Shown here piece by piece: positions 15,056 through 26,851 of a DNA stretch of 64,000 nt. The notes under the pieces were generated by a model. The model searched no databases. It had not been told where the DNA came from and saw nothing but the letters and a program-made list of their open reading frames with translations. The translations under genes were made by a program, and so were the position numbers. The first letter of the stretch is position 1. Each line of letters opens with the position of its first letter. Source of the DNA: Thermoplasmata archaeon (lineage in GTDB: Archaea; Thermoplasmatota; Thermoplasmata; Sysuiplasmatales; Sysuiplasmataceae); assembly GCA_021806165.1 (NCBI GenBank), contig JAJZXY010000004.1:65595-129594 (forward strand), in the 5' to 3' direction.

Positions 15056-15856
15056 TCACAGGCTTCCCAGGTAGATTTCGGTAGTCATCTCCATAAGCAC
15101 CTTCCCATCCTTCTGGTGTCTTTCAAACACGTCCGAGATTGCCTCCATCAGCTCCCCGTATGCATGTTCACCTTCAGCCGGCATGTAGGAGGCGGAGAGA
15201 AGGCGGCCCCTGAGACCGTCGAGAGTCAGCCATCTGTTATTTGGAAGCGTGAATCTCCTGTATGAGGAGAAGAAGAGGCGAAGCCCCTCGTCTCCCGGAC
15301 CCATGACAGGTGAGAAGTTCCTTCCGAACCTGCTGACAAGCTCCCGGTAGTCGGTGTTCAGCCCTCCAGTCCTGTCGCGTGTGTTGTATATGACAGCAGC
15401 CTTGCCGTTCCTTGATATGCGCCTGAGCTCCAGGGAGGCAGTTGAGGGGTTGAACCAGTGGAATGACTGCCCGGCGGTGACCATATCGACCGATTTATCC
15501 GGAAGGGTTGTCTCCTCGGCTGAGCCGGCGACGCTCCTGAACCCGCTGAACGATGAGAGAGCCTCCTCGGCGGCTGATCGCATGTCCGCATTAGGCTCAA
15601 CGCAGTAGACTGTGTTCCCGTTTTCCAGGAATAGGCTGCTGAGAATGCCCGTTCCGCTGCCTATGTCCGCTACGACGCTGCCGCTTCCGAAGGATGCCTC
15701 CCTTGCAAGTATCTCAAGAATGCCCCTGGGGTAGGGGGGCCTGTATTTCGCGTATGCTCCGGCCCTTCCGGTGAACCTGCTCTTTGCATCGGATGCGACC
15801 TTCCACTCAGACAATGCGCATCTCCTCCCTGAAGAACCGGCCGCCGGCATCGTCAA
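15056..15856 (-). CDS. Class I SAM-dependent methyltransferase
   Basis: Motif I 'VVADIGSGTGILS'. 266 aa. Confidence 0.6.
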   Translation of the reverse strand: MTMPAAGSSGRRCALSEWKVASDAKSRFTGRAGAYAKYRPPYPRGILEILAREASFGSGSVVADIGSGTGILSSLFLENGNTVYCVEPNADMRSAAEEALSSFSGFRSVAGSAEETTLPDKSVDMVTAGQSFHWFNPSTASLELRRISRNGKAAVIYNTRDRTGGLNTDYRELVSRFGRNFSPVMGPGDEGLRLFFSSYRRFTLPNNRWLTLDGLRGRLLSASYMPAEGEHAYGELMEAISDVFERHQKDGKVLMEMTTEIYLGSL

Positions 15857-16226
15857 GGCGCCACGATCTCGAGGAATCGGGGCTGCCCATCCTGATGCTC
15901 ATTATGAGGTAGGAGTAGGACGGCCATGCATGTGCCCGATCAAATTCGGAGGGAACAGAAGGATGGTCGGGGTGGGAGTGGTAGTAGCCAAGGACTACCA
16001 TGCCGGAGGCTGCTGCCCTCTTTTCCGCCTCCATTATCGACTGTGCATCAATGCTGTACCTCGTGCGCCTGGAATCGGGGGCGGAGTTGCGCGCCTTCCT
16101 GATTTCCTCAACCAGGTGATCGCGGCCGGCCCTGCCGATGAGGAAACCGCAGCATTCCTCCGGGTAGGTGGATACTGCATGCCGCCTGATCTCATCCAGC
16201 AGTGACAGAGGGAGAACAAGAGTCAT
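15807..16226 (-). CDS. JAMM/MPN+ zinc metalloprotease (Mec+/deSAMPylase-like)
   Basis: Catalytic motif E-x(n)-'HSHPDHPSVPSEFD' (HxHx7Sx2D) and 'EECCGFLIG'. The probable start is the internal Met 'MTLVLPLSLLDEI' at 16226, which avoids overlap with sufS. It is the last gene of the suf/cysO operon. Confidence 0.75.
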   Translation of the reverse strand: MTLVLPLSLLDEIRRHAVSTYPEECCGFLIGRAGRDHLVEEIRKARNSAPDSRRTRYSIDAQSIMEAEKRAAASGMVVLGYYHSHPDHPSVPSEFDRAHAWPSYSYLIMSIRMGSPDSSRSWRLDDAGGRFFREEMRIV

Positions 16227-16269
16227 CGCCTTGATATGAAAAGATGGTGGTAAAAAAAACTTGGCTGAA

Positions 16270-17508
16270 TCAGGCAAACACCTTTCTCACCCTGTCGATG
16301 GCCCGCATAAGTGCGTCGACATCATCCCTCCCGTTGTAGAGGTAGAAGGATGCCCTCGTTGTGGAGGGCTGTTCCAGCCAGTTCATCAGGGGCTGTGCGC
16401 AATGGTGCCCGGACCTTGTGGCGACCCCCTCTCTTCCGAGGATCTCGGCAACATCGTGTCCATGGACACCCTTCAGGTTGAATGAGATGAGGCCACTCCT
16501 CTCCTCCGGATCCCGGGGGCCGTATATCTCAATGTCTGGATGCTCCGACATCCTCTCCATTGCGTACGAGACAAGTGACCTGTCATACGCCTCGATCTTC
16601 TCCATTCCGATGCCACGCAGGTAGTCCACAGCAGCACCAAGGCCTATTGCACCTGAAATGTTCTGTGTTCCTGCCTCGAACTTGTAAGGCAGCTCGGCCC
16701 AGCTGGAGCCCGACTGTTTCACCTCACTTATCATTTCACCGCCGCCGAAAACAGGTTCCATCCTGCCCAGCAGTTCAGCCTTGCCATAAAGGACTCCTAT
16801 TCCAGTGGGTGCACACATCTTGTGACCCGAAACTGCCATCAGATCGCAGTCAATCTGCCTGACATCGACGGGCATATGCGGAACGGATTGAGCCGCATCG
16901 ACTATGAAAAGTGAGCCATTGTCGTGTGCAATCCTGCCTATCTCCCTTATGTTGTTTACCGTACCAAGAACATTGGAGACGTGGCTGACAGACACCACCC
17001 TTGTCCTCCCGCTGAGCTTCTCCATGAAATCGTCCATATCAAGCCTGCCGGAGGAGTCGAGCCCCGCAAACTTCACTTTCACACCCTTCCAGGAGAGCAT
17101 CTGCCACGGAACGATGTTTGAATGGTGCTCCATTACAGTGGTTAGCACCTCATCCCCCTCCTTCAGTGAATGTAAGCCGAGGCTGAGGGAGATTATGTTG
17201 AGCGCTTCCGTTGCACCGCGCACGAAAACGATCTCCTCCGGGCTCGCCGCATTTACAAATGACCTGAATTTCTCGCGTGATGCCTCGAATGCGTCGGTTG
17301 CCTTCTGGCTTAGCGGGTATATCCCACGGTGGACGTTGGAGTTGAACTCCTCTTCGAATGAGGAAACAGCACTTATCACAGAGGCAGGCTTCTGGCTGGT
17401 GGCTGCGCTGTCCAGATAGACGAGATTCTCGTTGCCTGGCGAGCTGAAGATTGGAAAATCTTCCCTGTACGGGGATTTTGCCGGCGGGATCTCTGTCAGA
17501 TGCATCAC
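16270..17508 (-). CDS. sufS: Cysteine desulfurase SufS (class V aminotransferase, group II)
   Basis: PLP-lysine 'SGHKMCAPTGIGVLY' and active-site 'RSGHHCAQPL'. 412 aa. Confidence 0.85.
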   Translation of the reverse strand: MMHLTEIPPAKSPYREDFPIFSSPGNENLVYLDSAATSQKPASVISAVSSFEEEFNSNVHRGIYPLSQKATDAFEASREKFRSFVNAASPEEIVFVRGATEALNIISLSLGLHSLKEGDEVLTTVMEHHSNIVPWQMLSWKGVKVKFAGLDSSGRLDMDDFMEKLSGRTRVVSVSHVSNVLGTVNNIREIGRIAHDNGSLFIVDAAQSVPHMPVDVRQIDCDLMAVSGHKMCAPTGIGVLYGKAELLGRMEPVFGGGEMISEVKQSGSSWAELPYKFEAGTQNISGAIGLGAAVDYLRGIGMEKIEAYDRSLVSYAMERMSEHPDIEIYGPRDPEERSGLISFNLKGVHGHDVAEILGREGVATRSGHHCAQPLMNWLEQPSTTRASFYLYNGRDDVDALMRAIDRVRKVFA

Positions 17509-17509
17509 C

Positions 17510-17815
17510 TCACAAGTCCACGAATATATCGCCGTCTACTATCTTAAGCTCGTACTTGCGCAGCGGTTCCTCGGCGGGCGGGTTATCCACTTCGCCTGTC
17601 CTTATGCTGAAACGTGAAAGATGGAGCGGACAGGTGATATTCTCCCCCATTATGATGCCTCGTGACAAGTCCGTATCTTCGTGTGTGCAGATTGCATCCA
17701 GCGCGTGGTATTCATCGCCCAGTTTTATGACCATTATGCTCACCCCGTCTGCGTCGACCCTTTTCACCCGGGCTGTCCCGAAGTCTGAAACAGAGGCGAC
17801 CTTCCTGAAGGTCAT
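17510..17815 (-). CDS. Rieske [2Fe-2S] domain protein
   Basis: Rieske boxes 'CTHEDTDLSRG' (CxH) and 'CPLH' (CxxH). 101 aa. Sits between sufD and sufS. Confidence 0.7.
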   Translation of the reverse strand: MTFRKVASVSDFGTARVKRVDADGVSIMVIKLGDEYHALDAICTHEDTDLSRGIIMGENITCPLHLSRFSIRTGEVDNPPAEEPLRKYELKIVDGDIFVDL

Positions 17816-17821
17816 CCTTCC

Positions 17822-19252
17822 TCACCTGTACTTGTAGTGACCCTCGAATATGTTCTCAGTGGTCTTTATCTGGTCCTTGACGTATTTCTCGAACTCAAGT
17901 TCGTCCAGATGCCTGTTGGACTCGAGGGAAATGACATTGTTCCACTTGTCCTCTATGAGGAAGCGCATCTTGTCCCTTACCGCCTCGGTGGGGATGCGGG
18001 AAATCACAGGATCAAAAAAGCCCATGACCATGAGCTTCTCCGCCTCATCACGCGAAAGTCCCCTCGTTTCCAGGTAGTAGAGCTGCCCCTCGTCCATTTG
18101 TGAAACAGACGCCGAATGTGTTGCCTTTACACCGTTTGTCAGTATCTCCAGTCCTGGAATAGCGTCACATTTGGCGTCCTTGCTGAGAAGCATACCGTGC
18201 TCGGCAAGGTAGGAGCTTGTGTTCGCTCCCCCTTCGCCTATGCGTATCATACCCCTGAGCAGGGACCTGCTCTTCTCCCTGAGAACGCTCCTGACAGTTA
18301 TCCTGCCGCTGGTGTCCGGAACTTCGTGGTGCAGATCAGTTACCACATCGAACCTCTGGCTGCCGTTTCCGAACAGTATTTCGTAATCCTCAGTGGTTGC
18401 CCCGCGGCCGGTGAACTTCGTGTCCGCCCTTGCCCTGGTCAGGTCCGAACCAATATAGCTGGAAACCCACCTGACGTTGCTTTCCTTCCCAGATAGTGAG
18501 CGCCTGTTGGATATGTAGACCGACTTCTGGGAAAGGTTCTCCAGGGATGCGTAACTCACCGACGAGCCGTCACCGGCGAAGATGTCGGTAACCTCGCTGA
18601 ACAGTGTTGGCTGTGAGCCGTTCTCGCGCGAAAGCACCTCCGAAAGTATCTCCACGGACGCGCCTTCCTCCAGATGAACTATGTTCTGGTGGAAGTGAGC
18701 GCTGCCGGGGGCATCGTCCACGAATACAGTATGGATAGGCTTTTTGAGGGTGGTGTTCCGCGGCACGTGGATGTAAGTACCTCCGGTCATCATTGCGTTG
18801 TTGAGCGCGACGTACATGTCATCCGAGGGTCTGAGCCCCTTTGACCCGAACAGTTCCTTCATCTTCTCCCCGTGGAGGGAGGAAGCAGTGCCCAGCTCCT
18901 CGATGATGACGCCATCTGGCAGGGATTTCCATTCGCTGTACAGTCCCGCACTGGACTGCACGCTGAAAATGCTGTCATCCCTGAGGCCGGCGAATTCGGC
19001 AGGGATCCTGTCCAGCGTTTCTGCAACAGGGGCTATCCTGAAGCCGCTGTCCTCGAATTTCGACAGATTCACGTACTTCTTGTAAAGCGGATTGGGCTCA
19101 GGTCTGGATGCGGCATAGACCGCAAGGGCCGCCTTCCTGTAATCGGTCAGCCAGGACTGTTCTCCCCTGAACCTGGGCAGCTGTTCCTCTTCCGGCTGTA
19201 GCAGACTCTGGGTAGCTGCTGTCAAAGGCACACACTCTCCTGTTTTCCTCAC
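17822..19252 (-). CDS. sufD: Fe-S cluster assembly protein SufD (SufB/SufD family paralog)
   Basis: 476 aa with a SufBD beta-helix domain. Its start overlaps the stop of sufB by 4 nt. Confidence 0.75.
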
Positions 19253-20664
19253 CCGACTGATCCAGTCATTTCGAGCTGAATCAGCCTGTTGAGCTCCACT
19301 GCATATTCCATCGGCAGCTCCTTGGAGAATACATCAAGGAAACCCATCACAATCATGTTCAGCGCATCGGCCTCTGAAAGACCCCTGGACATCAGATAGA
19401 AAAGCTGCTCTTCGCTTATTTTGCCCACAGTAGCCTCATGCGTCGTCGACGCGCTCTCCTCGTTGATTGTGTTGTAAGGGTAGGTGTCTGTCCTGGACTT
19501 CTCATCCACAAGTAGCGCGTCGCACCGCACGCTGCTCTTTGAGTTGAGGGCACCACGCTCAATATGAAGCTGCCCGCGATAGGTGGTTCTGCCACCGTCT
19601 TTGCTGACACTCTTGGAGGTGATCCTCGAGGTTGTGTCCTCGGCAAAGTGGAATATCTTGGCTCCGGCGTCCTGATGCTGTCCCTTTCCAGCAAACGCAA
19701 TTGAGATGACCTCGCCCTTTGCTCCCTTGCCTAGCAGGTAGACTGACGGGTATTTCATTGTGAGCTTCGAGCCTATGTTGCCGTCCACCCATTCCACGGT
19801 GGCGCCCTCGTATGCATAGGCGCGCTTGGTGACGAGGTTGTACACATTGTTGGACCAGTTCTGGATGGTTGTGTATCTCACATATGCGCCCTTCTTGGCG
19901 ATAATCTCCACTACCGCGGAGTGCAGAGAGTCGGAGGAGTATATTGGTGCGGTGCATCCTTCGATATAGTGCACCTTGCTGCCTTCGTCCGCAATAATAA
20001 GCGTGCGTTCGAACTGGCCGGCGTTCTTTGCGTTTATCCTGAAGTATGCCTGCAGCGGTATGTCTACCTCCACGCCCTTTGGGACATAGATGAAGCTGCC
20101 GCCGCTCCACACAGCGCTGTTCAGCGCAGCGAGCTTGTTGTCCTCGGGAGGAATTACAGTCCCGAAGTACTCCTTGAATATCTCTGGATGCTCCTGAAGA
20201 CCCTGATCGGTGCCCAGAAAGATTACGCCTTTCTTCTGCAGATCGTCCCTGATCTTGTGGTAGACGACTTCGCTGTCATACTGCGCTCCGACTCCACCCA
20301 GGAATTTTTTTTCCGCCTCAGGTATTCCCAGCTTGTCGAACGTATCCTTGATGTATGCGGGCACATCCTCCCACTTGTCAGACCCCCTCTCTGTGGGTGC
20401 CATGTAGTAGAATATGTCGTTGAAGTCCACATCCCCGAGCATGGGGCTGCCCCAGTCGGGCATCGGCTTCTTCAGGAATATGTCCAGGGACCTGAGCCTG
20501 AAGTCTGTCATCCACTGTGGCTCCTTCTTGAACTTCGAGATTGCCTGAACGACATCCCTGCTGAGTCCCTTCTGCGTCTGAAAGACGTACTTCGCGTCGG
20601 CATCGTGGAAGCCGTATCTGCTGTAGTCACGATCTATGATTTCATTCGTAGACATTTTCAACAC
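19249..20664 (-). CDS. sufB: Fe-S cluster assembly protein SufB
   Basis: 471 aa with the conserved SufB N-terminal region '[32 protein letters not shown]' and the SufBD core. Confidence 0.85.
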
Positions 20665-20679
20665 TCCTTTACTTGATTT

Positions 20680-22104
20680 TCAGTATCTGGCCATTGAAGG
20701 GTCCACCTTCAACGCCCATTCCACTATCCCTCCGGTCAGATTCCTGACCTTCTTGAATCCTATATCCCTCATGAAGCGGACTGCATAGCTGCTGCGCTGC
20801 CCGCCCTTGCAGTAGACAACAATCTCGTCGGCGGTGCTCAGTTCGCTCACCCTCGAGGGCAGATCGTTGACAGGTATGAACAGCGATCCATCGATCCTGT
20901 TGATTTCCCATTCCTGTGGTTCCCTCACGTCCAAGACCACCACCGGCTCCTTCGCCTTCAGCTTCCTGTCAAGCTCCTCTGCGCTTATGGAGAGGTCGTC
21001 TGAAAGTTCATTTCCCCTGCCCAGGCCGCAGAACTCCTCATAATCTATCAGTTCATGCACCGTGGGATTTTCACCGCACACAGGGCACCGGGGGTTCTTG
21101 CGGAGCGTCAGCTCCTTGAACTTCATCTTCATGGCGTCAAAAAGGACGAGTCTCCCGATCAGCGGCTCCCCTTCTCCCAGTATCAGCTTGATGGTTTCCA
21201 TCGCCTGTATAGTGCCTATTATGCCGGGCAGGACGCCCACAACCCCGCCCTCAGCGCATGAGGGGACGAGCCCCGGGGGAGGGGGGTTTTCATAGAGGCA
21301 CCTGTAGCATGGCCCCTTCCTGGCATCAAAGACGGAAACCTGGCCCTCGAACCTGTATATTGACCCGTAAACGTTCGTCTTTCCAAGCAGAACGCATGCG
21401 TCATTGACCAGATACCTGGTCGGGAAATTGTCGGTGCCGTCTATTACTATGTCGAAGTTCTTTATTATGTCGAGTGCATTTTCAGAGGTTATCCTCTCCT
21501 CGAACTTGATTATCTTGACAGTGGGGTTGATTCCCTTAATGCGCTCCTCAGCGGAATCAATCTTCTTGCGCCCTACATCCTTCTCCGAATGTATCACCTG
21601 CCGCTGGAGATTGCTGAAATCCACAACATCAAAGTCCACTATGCCAATTGTCCCGACGCCTGCCGCGGCAAGATAGAGGAGAAGGGGGGAGCCAAGGCCG
21701 CCCGCACCTATGACGAGGACCTTTGCCCTCTTCAGCTTCAGCTGTCCGCTGAGCCCGACCTCTGGGAGGAGCAGATGGCGGCTGTAGCGCTGTATGTCGT
21801 CGTAGGTGAAGTCGCTGCCTGCACCTGAGGAACCGCCTGCTATTGAGGGTATGAGGAAAATGGTGTCGCCTTCATGCACAGGAGTGGTCCCGCGCTGCAG
21901 GTACCGTATATCCTCGTCGTTCAGGTATACATTCACGAAATTCCTGAGCTGCCCGCTGTCATCAAACAGGTGTCTCTTCAGCTGCTGGTTTGCAGCCGTG
22001 ACATTGCTCAGGACCTCATCCACTGTCGCACCGTCGGCCGTGACAGCATCCCTGTTGCCCACGTAGGGCCTCAGGGGCGTTGGTATCATTACTTTCACAC
22101 TCAT
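20680..22104 (-). CDS. Fusion protein of a CysO-like ThiS/MoaD sulfur carrier (ends ..IAGG), a MoeB/ThiF E1-like adenylyltransferase and a rhodanese domain (MoeZ-like)
   Basis: Residues 1-91 'MSVKVMIPTPLRPYVGNRDAV...FVNVYLNDEDIRY...DTIFLIPSIAGG' form a beta-grasp carrier with a C-terminal diglycine. The linker 'SSGAGSDF' leads into E1 'YSRHLLLPEVGLSGQLKLKRAKVLVIGAGGLGS', which includes two CxxC pairs. The C-terminal rhodanese carries 'VVYCKGGQRS'. The start overlaps the cysM stop. Confidence 0.75.
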   Translation of the reverse strand: MSVKVMIPTPLRPYVGNRDAVTADGATVDEVLSNVTAANQQLKRHLFDDSGQLRNFVNVYLNDEDIRYLQRGTTPVHEGDTIFLIPSIAGGSSGAGSDFTYDDIQRYSRHLLLPEVGLSGQLKLKRAKVLVIGAGGLGSPLLLYLAAAGVGTIGIVDFDVVDFSNLQRQVIHSEKDVGRKKIDSAEERIKGINPTVKIIKFEERITSENALDIIKNFDIVIDGTDNFPTRYLVNDACVLLGKTNVYGSIYRFEGQVSVFDARKGPCYRCLYENPPPPGLVPSCAEGGVVGVLPGIIGTIQAMETIKLILGEGEPLIGRLVLFDAMKMKFKELTLRKNPRCPVCGENPTVHELIDYEEFCGLGRGNELSDDLSISAEELDRKLKAKEPVVVLDVREPQEWEINRIDGSLFIPVNDLPSRVSELSTADEIVVYCKGGQRSSYAVRFMRDIGFKKVRNLTGGIVEWALKVDPSMARY

Positions 22105-23033
22105 TCCTTGACCTCCCAGAACTTTTCACCCAGGTATTTCTGCCCACCGTCGGGGAAGACTGTCACAAAGGAGCCTCCGCCGTGCTCCCTTGCAATCTTC
22201 AGGCAGGCAACGACCGCCGCACCCGAGCTGGGTCCAACGAGCAGGCCCTCCTGTCTTGCAAGGCGCCTTACAGCACCCTGCGCTTCTTCGGTGGTCACGT
22301 CGACATGCATGTCTGCCAGGGTATCGTCGTATATCCCCGGCCTTATAGAGGCATCCATCCTCTTGAGTCCCTCAAGACCGTGAAATGGCCCGTCCGGCTC
22401 AACTGAAACTCTCTTAATCTCCGGAAAGACCTCCCTGAGATACCGGCTCACCCCTGTGAAAGTGCCTCCCGTGCCCACGCCTGCAACAAAGTAGTCGAAA
22501 TGCCCCCTTGTCTGTGAGACAATCTCGACTGCGGTGCCTTCATAGTGGGCCCGCCAGTTGGAATCGTTGTTGTACTGGTCAGCGTAGAAATACAGTTCAG
22601 GTTCCTCTTCGGACATCTTCCTGGCCAACCGCTGCGCACCGTCTGTACCTTCCAGCGGATCTGAAAGGACGAGATCCGCACCGTACGCGGTAAGCATCTC
22701 GATCTTCTCCCTTGCCACATTCCTCGGGATCACGAGCCTGCACCTGTACCCCTTGACAGCGCAAATCATGGCGTATGCAATGGCAGTGTTCCCTGACGAG
22801 GCGTCCAGAAGTATCCTGCCGTTGCCGAGTAATCCCTGTTTCTCAGCATCCTCAATGATCTTGCTGGCAGCGCGGTCCTTTACACTTCCTCCCGGATTGA
22901 AACACTCTGCCTTGGCATAAATCCGTGTGCCTGGCATGTCTGAAGTCATCTTCCTGAGAGCCAGAAGCGGAGTGTTGCCTATCCTGCTAAGAAGTGACCA
23001 TCCTGCATCATAGGCGAGGTTGTTACGCATCAA
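22101..23033 (-). CDS. cysM: Cysteine synthase family PLP enzyme (CysM/CysK-like; candidate sulfur-carrier-thiocarboxylate-dependent sulfhydrylase)
   Basis: PLP-binding 'GGSVKDRAA' and 'DASSGNTAIAYAM'. 310 aa. Translationally coupled (ATGA overlap) to the CysO::MoeZ gene. Confidence 0.8.
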   Translation of the reverse strand: MMRNNLAYDAGWSLLSRIGNTPLLALRKMTSDMPGTRIYAKAECFNPGGSVKDRAASKIIEDAEKQGLLGNGRILLDASSGNTAIAYAMICAVKGYRCRLVIPRNVAREKIEMLTAYGADLVLSDPLEGTDGAQRLARKMSEEEPELYFYADQYNNDSNWRAHYEGTAVEIVSQTRGHFDYFVAGVGTGGTFTGVSRYLREVFPEIKRVSVEPDGPFHGLEGLKRMDASIRPGIYDDTLADMHVDVTTEEAQGAVRRLARQEGLLVGPSSGAAVVACLKIAREHGGGSFVTVFPDGGQKYLGEKFWEVKE

Positions 23034-23401
23034 CGGGTCTCACCCGCTGCTTCCTGAAATACCTTCAGTCCCAGTGTCGCACACTTGAGACGAACTGCGC
23101 TGAGCGGTATGTGAAGCATCTCCTTTACACCGTCTATATCCATCTTCCTTGCCTCTTCAAGGCTCATGCCCTTCAGTTTGTCTGTCAGCATGGAGACTGA
23201 AGCCTGGCTGATGGCGCAGCCACGGCCATCAAATGAGACGGCCGAAATCTTGCCATCCGATATTTTGACATATATGCTTATGTCATCGCCGCAGACCGGA
23301 TTGTTTCCGTGGCCGAAGAGATCAGGATGCTCAATGCTTCCCTTGTTGTGCGGATTCTTGTAGTGTTCAAGAATCTCCTCCTGGTAGATGTCGTAGGCCA
23401 T
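23030..23401 (-). CDS. sufU: SufU/IscU-like (NifU N-terminal domain) Fe-S scaffold or sulfurtransferase
   Basis: 'NPVCGDDISIYVKI', 'GRGCAISQASVSML' and 'KCATL' give the three conserved Cys. 123 aa. Confidence 0.75.
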   Translation of the reverse strand: MAYDIYQEEILEHYKNPHNKGSIEHPDLFGHGNNPVCGDDISIYVKISDGKISAVSFDGRGCAISQASVSMLTDKLKGMSLEEARKMDIDGVKEMLHIPLSAVRLKCATLGLKVFQEAAGETR

Positions 23402-23412
23402 TTCTTTTATCC

Positions 23413-24186
23413 TCAGTTTGTTATGGCGGGCTCCCTGAGCCAGTCGTATCCCTTCTCCTCAAGCTCCTTTGCGAGCTCCTTTCCGCCGCTCTTCACGATT
23501 CTGCCATCGACGACTACGTGAACAAACTGCGGCGTTATGTACTGCAGTAGGCGCTGGTAGTGTGTGACAAGGATAAGGCCAACGTCCGGGCCGGCCATGG
23601 TGTTTATTGCATTTGCAACAACTTTCAGCGAATCAATGTCGAGCCCGCTGTCTGTCTCATCGAGTATTGCAAACCTTGGCTGCAGGACGGCCATCTGGAG
23701 GACCTCTGCCCTCTTCTTTTCGCCGCCGGAGAATCCCTCATTCAGGGACCTGCCTATGAAATTCTCGTCAATGCCGAGAGCGTTGACCTTCTCCTTGAGC
23801 AGCCTGAAGAATTTCGTCGGGCTGAGCTGATTGTCACTGTGGACTGCATTGTATGCAATCCTCAGGAAGTTCCCTAGCCTTACTCCCGGTATCTCAACCG
23901 GGTACTGGAATCCAAGGAAGAGGCCTAGTTTGGCCCTCTTGTCGGGAGTCAGCGACAGAACGTCCGTTCCGTCCACCTTCACCTCTCCCCCGGTAATCTG
24001 GTATTTTGGATGGCCCATGAGCGAATAGCTCAGCGTGCTCTTTCCAGATCCGTTGGGGCCCATTATCGCATGTATCTCACCCTGCTTCACGTCGAGGTTG
24101 ATTCCTTTTAGAATCTGCTTGCCTTCAATATTGACTTTCAGGTCCTTAATAGAGAGTTCCGATGACATTTCCTGTACCTCTGACAC
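23413..24186 (-). CDS. sufC: Fe-S cluster assembly ATPase SufC
   Basis: Walker A 'GPNGSGKST', signature 'FSGGEKKR', Walker B 'AILDETDSGLD'. 257 aa. First gene of the operon. Confidence 0.9.
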   Translation of the reverse strand: MSEVQEMSSELSIKDLKVNIEGKQILKGINLDVKQGEIHAIMGPNGSGKSTLSYSLMGHPKYQITGGEVKVDGTDVLSLTPDKRAKLGLFLGFQYPVEIPGVRLGNFLRIAYNAVHSDNQLSPTKFFRLLKEKVNALGIDENFIGRSLNEGFSGGEKKRAEVLQMAVLQPRFAILDETDSGLDIDSLKVVANAINTMAGPDVGLILVTHYQRLLQYITPQFVHVVVDGRIVKSGGKELAKELEEKGYDWLREPAITN

Positions 24187-24303: not shown

Positions 24304-24936
24304 GTGGACGCTGACATTTCAATGCTTGGCGAGTCAAAAGCCCGCATCATAAACTACCTTGGCGAAGGCGAGAAGTCGGGTAGCGAGCTTTCCTCCATGC
24401 TGAGCATCAACCAGACCGCCGTGAGAGAGCACGCCCAGGCGCTGGAGCGGATGGGGATAGTACAGGCAAGGTTCATAAGAACAGGCATAGGCCGCCCCAA
24501 GAAGCGCTATTCACTTACCCCCTTTGGTGTTGAACTGCTTCCAAAGCATTACGATGTCATGCTCAACGTGCTGATAAAGAAAATATGGGAGAGGGGTGGC
24601 GATGTTCTTCTCAGCCAGCTCATGTCGGACGTGGTGAAGGAGCTAGCCGACAGCTCGGCTAGCGAGGAGGGACTGACGCTCGAGCAGAGGGTGAACAGGG
24701 TAGTGGACTTCCTGAACCGCATGGGGTTCATGGCAACGGTCGAAAAGAGCGGCGAACAGCTGTCTGTTGTGAGACACAACTGCATCTTCAACAAGACTGC
24801 CAAGCTTTATTCAGGCGTCCTCTGCAGCGAGTGTGACACAGTGCTTATCAAAGAACCCATTGGCAGTAGGGAGATAGAGCTTGTCGAATGCATAGGCAAG
24901 GGCGACACTTCCTGCAGGAACGTAATCAAGGCGTGA
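24304..24936 (+). CDS. Winged-helix (ArsR-like) transcriptional regulator with a C-terminal Cys-rich, possibly Fe-S or metal-sensing, domain. It is the putative suf operon regulator.
   Basis: N-terminal HTH 'SKARIINYLGEGEKSGSELSSMLSINQTAVREHAQALERMGIV'. The C-terminal region carries C-x13-C-x2-C-x19-C-x8-C. It is divergently transcribed from sufC. Confidence 0.5.
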   Translation: MDADISMLGESKARIINYLGEGEKSGSELSSMLSINQTAVREHAQALERMGIVQARFIRTGIGRPKKRYSLTPFGVELLPKHYDVMLNVLIKKIWERGGDVLLSQLMSDVVKELADSSASEEGLTLEQRVNRVVDFLNRMGFMATVEKSGEQLSVVRHNCIFNKTAKLYSGVLCSECDTVLIKEPIGSREIELVECIGKGDTSCRNVIKA

Positions 24937-25008: not shown

Positions 25009-25977
25009 ATGAAGAGAAGACTCCTGTTCCAGGCCGCTGTCATAGGGCTTGCGGCGCTACTTCTGATGCCGCTCCTTTTCAGCGGAGCCGCAAGGGCGGA
25101 TGACGGAGGAGACAGGGAGACTTCGGTTAACGTCCAGGGACACGGCGGGTACTTTACAATCGACTCGCAGTCAACCAACCAGGTGGGACCCAGGAACGAG
25201 TACAGCATGGTTTTTGCAGCCAACTCATTCTTAATGCAATTCAAGAATGATTCCCAGAAGGCGGGGTATACTCTGCAGTTCAACATCCAGCTTCTGGATC
25301 TCCTGCTGGTTGGTCCCGGCAACATTACCGTCCTGCTGAACTTCTCACAGCAGGAGTTCAGCGTCTACCAGATACCATCCACAGTCAACGGGCTCAGCAC
25401 CTTTGCACTGAGCACAGAATCGGACAGTGCGACGTTCATGATGACCGTGCAGGTATCCAATACGCCCACATCAGTGCTTCCGCAGAACTCCTCAACCGCA
25501 ATCCAGCTTACTCCAAATGAAGTGAAAATCTCATTTATGATACAGCTTGGGAAGGTGAACGACGGCGGCTTCCGTAACCAGAGGGGCGGCCAGCCGCCCA
25601 ACGGCAGCATCGTGCTTCAGCTGGGCGTCAGTTCGGTCAATTCCACGATATCCCAGGTGGAGAATATGAGTGCTTACTCGCAAATCGGTTTCACCCAGGG
25701 TATGAATAGCGGTTACTTCTCCTGGGAAAACAGCGCGCTAGCCGATGGCAGGAATGTAACCGTCAATTCCTCATTCTCACCTGCTGTCGGAACACTTTCG
25801 CTTGCCTACCCCGCTGCATCGACCATCATCCATGACCCGTACATAGGCATCTCCCCGGGGACAATTGTGAATGCTCTGGTGTCCAGTCCCGGGAACATTG
25901 TAATATACGCGGTGACACTAGCGATTTCAGCAGCGCTTATCGGCGGGGCTGTGACTGCAAGGCGCAGGCGCGGATAG
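25009..25977 (+). CDS. Secreted or cell-surface protein with an N-terminal signal peptide and a C-terminal TM anchor plus Arg tail
   Basis: N-terminus 'MKRRLLFQAAVIGLAALLLMPLLFSGAARA' and a Ser/Thr/Asn-rich body with many N-x-S/T sequons. C-terminus 'IYAVTLAISAALIGGAVTARRRRG'. Confidence 0.5.
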   Translation: MKRRLLFQAAVIGLAALLLMPLLFSGAARADDGGDRETSVNVQGHGGYFTIDSQSTNQVGPRNEYSMVFAANSFLMQFKNDSQKAGYTLQFNIQLLDLLLVGPGNITVLLNFSQQEFSVYQIPSTVNGLSTFALSTESDSATFMMTVQVSNTPTSVLPQNSSTAIQLTPNEVKISFMIQLGKVNDGGFRNQRGGQPPNGSIVLQLGVSSVNSTISQVENMSAYSQIGFTQGMNSGYFSWENSALADGRNVTVNSSFSPAVGTLSLAYPAASTIIHDPYIGISPGTIVNALVSSPGNIVIYAVTLAISAALIGGAVTARRRRG

Positions 25978-26000
25978 GCGTGTGCGGGTTCAGTGCTTGA

Positions 26001-26282
26001 ATGACTCTCCTGAGCATAGGGACTGCGGAAAATGTGGTCGCAGCTGTTCTTGCAGTCCTCTCATTCACGCTTCTCCTGATTTCGATTGCTTCGTACAGGA
26101 GAAGCAGAAATCCAAGACTCGCGCTGATTTCGTCATCCTTCCTCCTGTTTTTCTTTGAAGGCGCTCTGTTCACATACCAGCTGTTCTATGGTTCTTTCAC
26201 ATCCCAGATGTTTTTCACAATCACTGGAATCATCAATGTGGCAATACTCCTGCTTATATTCACGGCCACTTTCAAGAGGTAG
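26001..26282 (+). CDS. Small membrane protein (3 predicted TM helices)
   Basis: 93 aa, entirely hydrophobic helices. Sits between the surface protein and the wHTH regulator. Confidence 0.35.
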   Translation: MTLLSIGTAENVVAAVLAVLSFTLLLISIASYRRSRNPRLALISSSFLLFFFEGALFTYQLFYGSFTSQMFFTITGIINVAILLLIFTATFKR

Positions 26283-26299
26283 CACGGGGGATTGCATCC

Positions 26300-26851
26300 T
26301 TGGGGGATGAGACTCTCGAACTTGAAACCAGAAGGAGGATCTACGAGGCAGTCAGGAAATTTCCCGGCATCCACCTGAGGGAGCTGTCGAGACAGCTGGG
26401 ACTGAGCGTACCGCTTGTGGATTACCACCTGAACTTCCTGGACAAGTACGGAATGGTTTCAGGTATTGCGGATGAGCAGTACAGGAGATTCTACCCAAGG
26501 GATCCGATTGGTGCGGAGAACAAGACGGACGTTCTTTCAGCCGACGAGAAGAGAGTTGTTGCGCTGCTGCGGCAGCGCATACCACTGCAGATAGTCCTGT
26601 TCCTGTTGAAAAACGGGACAGCTCAGCATAAGCAAATGGTCCCGCTGATGGGCATTTCACCCTCTACTCTCTCCCACCACCTCAACAAGCTCCACAGGAG
26701 GGGAATTCTTGTCAAGACCGTTTCCGGGGAGGAAAGGGGTTACAGGCTTGCGAACGAGGGACAGATCGCGAGGCTGTTGCTGACTTATGAGCCTCCGCCC
26801 GGGACTCTGGTGGACAGTTTCATAGAGATTTGGGAAGAATTCCACCAGTAG
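26300..26851 (+). CDS. Transcriptional regulator with two winged-HTH domains
   Basis: 'RRRIYEAVRKFPGIHLRELSRQLGLSVPLVDYHLNFLDKYGMV' and a second wHTH 'MVPLMGISPSTLSHHLNKLHRRGILVK'. Confidence 0.5.
   Translation: MGDETLELETRRRIYEAVRKFPGIHLRELSRQLGLSVPLVDYHLNFLDKYGMVSGIADEQYRRFYPRDPIGAENKTDVLSADEKRVVALLRQRIPLQIVLFLLKNGTAQHKQMVPLMGISPSTLSHHLNKLHRRGILVKTVSGEERGYRLANEGQIARLLLTYEPPPGTLVDSFIEIWEEFHQ

Follow-up and report, generated by a model that had tools for sequence, protein, structure and literature searches.

The stretch of DNA analyzed here (the window, 64,000 nucleotides or 64 kb) comes from contig JAJZXY010000004.1 of a Thermoplasmata archaeon and contains an operon of nine tightly packed minus-strand genes: sufC, sufU, a cysM-like gene, a cysO::moeZ fusion, sufB, sufD, a Rieske protein gene, sufS and a gene for a JAMM metalloprotease (Table 1). 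The fusion, which is gene 4 of the operon, encodes a protein of 474 amino acids (aa) in which a CysO-like sulfur carrier of the beta-grasp fold is joined in frame to an E1 adenylation domain and a rhodanese domain. Pfam recognized ThiS at residues 5–91 (E 9.7e-11), ThiF at 107–342 (E 9.2e-87) and Rhodanese at 374–464 (E 2e-20). The codons of Gly90-Gly91, with which the carrier domain ends, lie at 21832–21837 (plus-strand accgcc, coding GGC GGT) and are followed by that of Ser92. The carboxylate of Gly91 is not free as encoded, because Ser92 and 382 more residues continue in frame, and this implies that a processing step is required. E1 enzymes of the MoeB and ThiF type adenylate a free C-terminal carboxylate, so that an internal Gly-Gly cannot be activated.

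CysO of Mycobacterium tuberculosis (3dwg_C) was the top solved-structure match of the first 99 residues (E 7e-18). Carrier residues 1–91 pair with CysO residues 1–93 over the full length, and the C-terminal Gly-Gly of CysO coincides with Gly90-Gly91 of the fusion; CysO from the Amycolatopsis BexX complex ranked second. PDB entry 1v8c, a 168-aa 'MoaD related protein' of Thermus thermophilus, is also among the solved matches of the carrier domain. Its alignment reaches an internal Gly-Gly at about residues 87–88, after which 80 further residues follow, which makes it a solved structure in which the Gly-Gly of a carrier is masked. An alignment of 67 fused homologues revealed invariant residues in all three domains: P86, A89, G90 and G91 in the carrier, the GxGGxG motif, D225, C283 and the zinc cysteines C266, C269, C340 and C343 in the E1, and C432, G435, R437 and S438 in the rhodanese domain. 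An earlier sequence-only reading of the locus had described a CysO-like carrier ending in Gly-Gly, a linker of about eight residues (SSGAGSDF), a complete E1, a rhodanese domain with an intact cysteine (Cys432) and an ATGA junction with the cysM-like gene (plus-strand 22101–22104, tcat), and all of these features were confirmed.

The AlphaFold2 model of the fusion, computed with the 67 homologues as input, has a mean predicted local distance difference test (pLDDT) score of 85, with a confident beta-grasp domain and a confident E1-rhodanese body. The pLDDT falls below 50 across residues 88–95, and the junction between carrier and E1 is accordingly predicted to be flexible and disordered. Foldseek searches with this model returned Uba4 (6yub) as the top match (E 3e-37), and ThiF (1zud) and MoeB (1jw9) were matched with a TM score of about 0.94 on the target. 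Residues 97–474 align with the MoeZ and MoeB models of NCBIfam. The scores are below the cut-off for the MoeZ equivalog NF005902 (490 against 647 bits) and for MoeB PRK07411 (508 against 633 bits) and above it for PRK08762 (477.7 against 449 bits), the sole MoeB model passed, which accounts for the label 'MoeB' that annotation pipelines give to such proteins.

The same 474-aa sequence occurs, identical, on several independently assembled contigs (NCBI, ENA and Logan SRR7275282), and the open frame is kept in relatives at 72–87% identity despite divergent linker sequences. These two observations exclude a frameshift or an assembly artefact. No frameshift or stop was found between codons of about 91 and 100, where the sequence-only reading had placed the break that would separate two genes. 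In a search of a 5.8-billion-protein collection, ThiS, ThiF and Rhodanese were present in all of the best 120 matches, which are 466–493 aa long; the finding that these 120 are all fused likewise speaks against an artefact. Fusion relatives at 72–87% identity come from metagenome-assembled genomes of Thermoplasmata and Methanomassiliicoccales, and those at 61–65% identity from records of Thermoanaerobaculia, Vicinamibacteria, Blastocatellia, Bacteroidetes, Caldithrix and Nitrospinae. When residues 1–151 were compared with representatives at 50% identity, 56 clusters were found at E <= 1e-30, and about 90 of the 150 best representatives gave one continuous alignment spanning the junction. Between Gly-Gly and RYSRH, the first conserved E1 motif, fused proteins have 11–34 residues of variable sequence (14 in the window protein), and a small residue comes directly after Gly-Gly (Ser in 52% of them, Ala in 28%). 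The carrier-E1 fusion is thus a common architecture and not a rare one.

The gene neighborhoods were compared in a locus scan that took one genome per species and yielded at least 595 matches, of which 80 loci, all bacterial, were kept. Most belong to Acidobacteriota, and others to Gemmatimonadota, Chloroflexia, Dormibacterota and Eisenbacteria. As judged by tblastn with the window proteins, the usual bacterial order is cysM, JAMM, cysO and moeZ on a single strand. The JAMM gene lies directly upstream on the same strand in 78 of the 80 loci. A cysM homologue (45–56% identity in the best segment) lies upstream on the same strand in 73, and three of the seven loci that lack it end at a contig edge. 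The archaeal context was obtained by a separate search for contigs encoding relatives, which gave three loci (L082, L084 and L086) whose fusions are 72–76% identical to that of the window and which have the same nine genes in identical order. Two claims of the sequence-only reading need adjusting. It had left open whether the carrier is released by proteolysis or works uncleaved in cis; release is strongly supported by the JAMM gene in the operon and in the bacterial loci, and the uncleaved cis alternative is not chemically viable because E1 needs a free carboxylate. It had also argued for a dedicated sulfhydrylase-carrier pair from the ATGA overlap. The conserved neighborhood upholds the pair, but the overlap is no basis for it: it is not conserved, being absent in two archaeal relatives (gaps of 8–11 nucleotides), and in bacteria the JAMM gene stands between cysM and the fusion.

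When the contig of the window itself (L001) is added to the 80 bacterial loci, the carrier is fused in frame with the E1 in 41 of the 81 loci and split from it, with a stop codon soon after Gly-Gly, in the other 40. The proposed search of related genomes for split and fused versions removes the impression that the fusion is unusual, since it is present in half of the orthologous cassettes. Not one of the 40 split cysO genes terminates at Gly-Gly: 15 encode a one-residue tail (R, K, L, W, F, A or C) and the others tails of 2–32 residues. Masked C-termini in all 40 imply that C-terminal processing is needed clade-wide, and the fusion then represents its extreme form. As far as could be checked, such universally masked cysO C-termini have not been described. 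Readthrough or recoding of the stop codon in the split relatives was considered and rejected, because the downstream gene is in frame in 14 of 40 cases, the rate expected by chance, and moeZ in the split loci begins at a start codon of its own after a spacer; the split arrangements are genuine two-gene arrangements. In a neighbor-joining tree built from the E1-rhodanese parts, the fused state is interleaved with the split one and several sister pairs differ in state, so that the two forms are functionally interchangeable, and the archaeal sequences form a single clade, all fused. The fused carrier domain is orthologous to the stand-alone CysO of the same type of cassette, with 45–61% identity, and in the bacterial loci no solo carrier was seen next to a fused gene.

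Several split-cysO tails are markedly cysteine-rich and are kept within subclades of the E1 tree. In Acidobacteriota, many cysO reading frames just upstream of moeZ have such a tail after Gly-Gly, for example GGCCPCGCCCCPR, GGSCACCCPCRMNA, GG[ST]xxRCICS or ...CCPPACGR (Table 1). Such a tail could mimic the product for the JAMM enzyme, bind a metal or a persulfide, or be released as a peptide. Two further features adjoin the bacterial cassettes. In Vicinamibacteria (L003, 11618–12811; also L006, L009, L011, L018, L019 and L068), a class-V aminotransferase gene of the cysteine-desulfurase-like kind follows the cassette directly, with a NifU_N-like gene next in some loci. The link between a desulfurase and the carrier-E1 pair hence recurs outside the archaeal suf operon. 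Two Acidobacteriota loci (L069, 5353–6132, and L072, 5366–6181) have a second E1-like paralogue about 4 kb upstream of the cassette, with 52–53% identity to query residues 98–366 by tblastn.

The two other enzymes that a carrier pathway calls for are encoded in the archaeal operon. The JAMM protein has the complete motif EECCGF...HSH-x7-S-xx-D, matches Pfam Prok-JAB (E 6.5e-26) and has the Salinibacter MPN protein 2kcq as its top solved match (E 1e-26); a Prok-JAB gene stands at the matching position in the three archaeal relatives. The cysM-like gene, whose stop overlaps the start of the fusion, encodes a pyridoxal phosphate (PLP)-dependent sulfhydrylase that scores 335 bits with the NCBIfam cysM model, below the equivalog cut-off of 394. 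Salmonella CysM (2jc3) is its top solved match (E 2e-65), the PLP lysine and the SGNT loop are kept, and the best solved matches comprise Salmonella and Escherichia coli CysM and several CysK enzymes. A Lys-Arg pair is aligned with two basic residues of Salmonella CysM (Arg210-Arg211, counted from the alignment), which hints at an anionic substrate. A CysO-domain hidden Markov model run against all six-frame open reading frames (ORFs) of the 64-kb window, together with a list of its Gly-Gly-ending ORFs, revealed no second carrier, and no small Gly-Gly-ending ORF in the window has a beta-grasp signature. The operon would therefore have no carrier to draw on other than the fused domain.

The M. 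tuberculosis proteins CysO, CysM, Mec+ and MoeZ(R) (Rv1335, Rv1336, Rv1334 and Rv3206c) have the same four functions as those of the window operon; in both, a rhodanese domain forms the C-terminal part of the E1, and genes for a PLP sulfhydrylase and a JAMM protein accompany that of the carrier. However, M. tuberculosis CysO terminates at Gly-Gly and moeZ is unlinked, whereas the window carrier is fused N-terminal to the E1 with its Gly-Gly internal, its sulfhydrylase is closer to enterobacterial CysM, and the genes lie inside an archaeal suf operon. The 80 bacterial loci correspond to the class of operons with 'ThiS/MoaD, E1-rhodanese, JAB and cysteine synthase' reported by Iyer, Burroughs and Aravind in 2006 (PMC1779556, row 4c), with the same gene set and overlapping phyla (Acidobacteria, Bacteroidetes/Chlorobi and others). 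The part of that survey that treats these operons gives carrier and E1 as separate proteins and mentions neither the fusion nor the suf-embedded archaeal arrangement; it does predict JAB-mediated release wherever ThiS/MoaD is fused to another protein. The Campylobacter-type Ubl-ThiF fusions described there, in which the ubiquitin-like (Ubl) domain is distinct from ThiS and a solo ThiS is present in the operon, are not matched here, as the window domain is a CysO orthologue and has no solo carrier beside it.

Masked Gly-Gly motifs are known from other systems. HvJAMM1 cuts a linear SAMP1-MoaE fusion exactly after the last Gly, which is needed for its activity (PMC4443979), and MoaX of M. tuberculosis requires a cut at Gly82|Ser83 (PMC4326299). 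Both resemble the window protein in having an N-terminal beta-grasp carrier, an internal Gly-Gly followed by Ser and a partner from the same pathway, and both are inactive until cut. Their partner is MoaE, a user of the thiocarboxylate, whereas that of the window carrier is the E1, its maker. The SAMP1-MoaE fusion that was tested, the archaeal JAMM-cut case, was engineered, while the CysO-MoeZ fusion is known here from sequence. The pairs QbsE/QbsD, CxnE/CxnF and HcyS/HcyD likewise combine a masked Gly-Gly with a JAMM gene adjoining the carrier, and removal of the QbsE and CxnE tails by JAMM enzymes has been proposed (PMC5925218). Tails of this type are 1–10 residues long and have counterparts in the split orthologues of the present set, whereas the 'tail' of the window carrier is a whole enzyme of 383 aa. 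Uba4/MOCS3, the eukaryotic E1-rhodanese for Urm1 and MOCS2A, shares the architecture and the thiocarboxylation chemistry but differs in that Urm1 is a separate protein; it has neither a fused carrier nor a JAMM partner.

Taken together, the fusion is probably a precursor that the JAMM enzyme cuts at Gly91|Ser92, after which the cysteine chemistry known for CysO, MoeZ, CysM and Mec+, a pathway that has been reconstituted for M. tuberculosis, would follow. The 474-aa chain would fold into a beta-grasp domain, a flexible junction and an E1-rhodanese body, and cleavage by the JAMM protein of the operon would yield, in a 1:1 ratio, a CysO of about 10 kDa with a free Gly-Gly carboxylate and a MoeZ of 383 aa. 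MoeZ would adenylate Gly91 with ATP, and a persulfide on Cys432 would turn the adenylate into CysO-COSH. On the CysM-like enzyme, an aminoacrylate formed from O-phosphoserine or O-acetylserine would capture CysO-COSH, and an S-to-N acyl shift would give CysO-Cys, from which the same JAMM protein would release cysteine and recycle CysO. For the archaeal lineage we speculate that this cysteine is consumed on the spot by SufS, SufU and SufBCD for iron-sulfur (Fe-S) assembly.

Several points weigh against this scheme. Cleavage of this protein, as of every orthologue, is predicted from sequence. The sulfhydrylase stands closer to enterobacterial CysM and to CysK enzymes, M. tuberculosis CysM lying outside its best 60 solved matches, and both the substrate and the use of a protein thiocarboxylate are extrapolations from gene linkage. 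A desulfurase in the operon and another directly 3' of the Vicinamibacteria cassette suggest a supply of persulfide, yet with SufS as the source for the rhodanese domain the making of cysteine from cysteine sulfur would be circular, with no net gain; the sulfur donor of the M. tuberculosis system is likewise without assignment (PMC3227635). Full-text searches found no paper describing this exact fusion, although the 2009 survey by Burroughs, Iyer and Aravind may list it.

Three alternatives to the JAMM-cut cysteine precursor were weighed. The fusion might remain uncleaved, its beta-grasp domain being a structural, regulatory or autoinhibitory pseudo-substrate module, with MoaD, ThiS or SAMP carriers encoded elsewhere. 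The window covers 64 kb of the genome and such carriers may lie outside it, and for the Campylobacter-type Ubl-ThiF fusions, which co-occur with a separate ThiS, a different role was proposed in the part of the 2006 survey that treats them (PMC1779556). Nevertheless, this explanation is very improbable, since stand-alone CysO proteins are orthologues of the domain, whose Gly-Gly is invariant, the fused and split states swap repeatedly on the tree, neither the operon nor the window holds a solo carrier, and a JAMM gene is nearby, as it is in nearly all of the bacterial loci. That the precursor is cut by another protease, or autocatalytically, and that the JAMM protein of the operon hydrolyses CysO-Cys only, is unlikely. 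According to the work of Burns and colleagues in 2005, hydrolysis of CysO-Cys is reportedly the sole activity demonstrated for Mec+, which counts in favor of another protease, as does the fact that the protease cleaving MoaX in mycobacteria has not been identified (PMC4326299). Against it stand the precise cut that HvJAMM1 makes after Gly-Gly in a linear Ubl fusion (PMC4443979), the JAMM trimming proposed for QbsE and CxnE (PMC5925218) and the linkage of the JAMM gene to cassettes in which the C-terminus of every carrier is masked; the variable residue after Gly-Gly also fits a protease that recognizes the Ubl domain and its Gly-Gly.

The released carrier might instead serve mainly Fe-S assembly, tRNA thiolation, molybdenum cofactor synthesis or Ubl conjugation, the CysM-like protein being an ordinary cysteine synthase that uses sulfide. 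The embedding of the genes in a suf operon, the closest matches of the sulfhydrylase (which are not of the M. tuberculosis CysM type), the desulfurase gene after the cassette in several Vicinamibacteria loci and the finding that MoeZR of M. tuberculosis serves CysO and MoaD alike (PMC3227635) would all agree with such a role. It is quite unlikely even so, because CysO is the nearest of all solved beta-grasp carriers, cysM accompanies the carrier, the E1 and the JAMM gene in 73 of the 80 bacterial loci without any suf context, and this operon type, which includes cysteine synthase, is a recognized class in row 4c of the 2006 survey (PMC1779556).

Table 1. Features of the window and of related loci (L numbers in the table denote loci on other contigs).
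Feature	Position	Strand	Basis and remarks
Nine-gene operon	15807–24186; L082 7898–16167; L084 7912–16330; L086 7955–16129	minus (window)	
sufC, ABC ATPase, first operon gene	23413–24186	minus	Pfam ABC_tran; same place in relatives
sufU, NifU_N sulfur-transfer protein	23030–23401	minus	NCBIfam SufU TIGR01994, 109 bits (cut-off 92.5)
cysM-like PLP-dependent sulfhydrylase	22101–23033	minus	Pfam PALP E 1e-70; likelier start ATG at 23030
cysO::moeZ precursor gene (putative precursor), 474 aa	20680–22104	minus	ORF, ATG start; Pfam ThiS, ThiF, Rhodanese
CysO-like beta-grasp domain, residues 1–91	21832–22104	minus	Pfam; M. tuberculosis CysO alignment; AlphaFold2
Linker, residues 92–99, SSGAGSDF	21808–21831	minus	Predicted JAMM cleavage site Gly91|Ser92 at linker start
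E1 adenylation domain (ThiF/MoeB fold), about residues 100–345	21070–21807	minus	Pfam; Foldseek
Rhodanese domain, residues 374–464	20713–20985	minus	Pfam
Active-site Cys432 codon of rhodanese domain	20809–20811	minus	Invariant residue
sufB	19249–20664	minus	Pfam SUFBD_core and SufBD_N; begins 15 nucleotides past fusion stop
sufD	17822–19252	minus	Pfam SUFBD_core
Rieske-type [2Fe-2S] protein gene	17510–17815	minus	Pfam Rieske E 4e-16; position kept in relatives
sufS, cysteine desulfurase	16270–17508	minus	Pfam Aminotran_5 E 1e-145; RSGHHCAQP active-site motif in translation
JAMM/MPN+ metalloprotease, Mec+-like, last operon gene	15807–16277	minus	Start TTG 16277 or ATG 16226
ArsR-family helix-turn-helix regulator, divergent	24304–24936	plus	Pfam HTH_5; cysteine-rich C-terminal half
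cysO ORFs with Cys-rich tails	L012 5280–5580; L015 8474–8780; L046; L053; L058; L059; L060; L062; L063; L064; L077		

The sufU stop overlaps the ATG of the cysM-like gene as TGATG. Divergent from the operon lies a gene for an ArsR-family helix-turn-helix (HTH) protein with cysteines arranged as CIFNK...CSEC...C...C. An HTH_5 gene stands at the matching divergent position in L082 and L086, and the gene there in L084 has no Pfam match on record. This protein is a candidate regulator of the operon, which could sense Fe-S or redox status in a SufR-like logic. Farther along the plus strand, at 25009–26282, a 322-aa ORF with a signal-like N-terminal and a membrane-anchor-like C-terminal segment is followed by a hydrophobic ORF of 93 aa, and a second HTH gene lies after them at 26300–26851. 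Genes of 303–335 aa and 93 aa without Pfam match occupy the corresponding positions in the relatives; judged by gene size and position, the two ORFs may be a conserved module. To our knowledge, genes of cysteine synthesis embedded within a suf operon have no description, and the archaeal operon is, as far as could be checked, undescribed.

The chemistry and the players (CysO, MoeZ, CysM and Mec+) are already known and no new principle is involved. What the very common label 'molybdopterin-synthase adenylyltransferase MoeB' probably hides in these genomes is a carrier-E1 precursor of a cysteine pathway. Because every carrier gene in this large clade leaves the Gly-Gly masked, JAMM processing is probably obligatory and possibly regulated, a clade-wide parallel to the maturation of ubiquitin precursors. 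A bolder and rather doubtful extension is that the clade-wide masking of Gly-Gly, whether by one residue, by a cysteine-rich tail or by a whole E1, is a deliberate pro-protein switch, through which the JAMM enzyme would gate the flux of sulfur into cysteine, for example by redox or metal status, and that the fusion would also hand the carrier over to its own E1 during translation. If so, prokaryotes would have an equivalent of ubiquitin-precursor processing, one that governs a metabolic pathway and that in this archaeon would be directly connected to Fe-S cluster assembly. The insertion of the pathway into the suf operon of one Thermoplasmata lineage suggests that cysteine synthesis there is hard-wired as a supply line for the assembly of Fe-S clusters.

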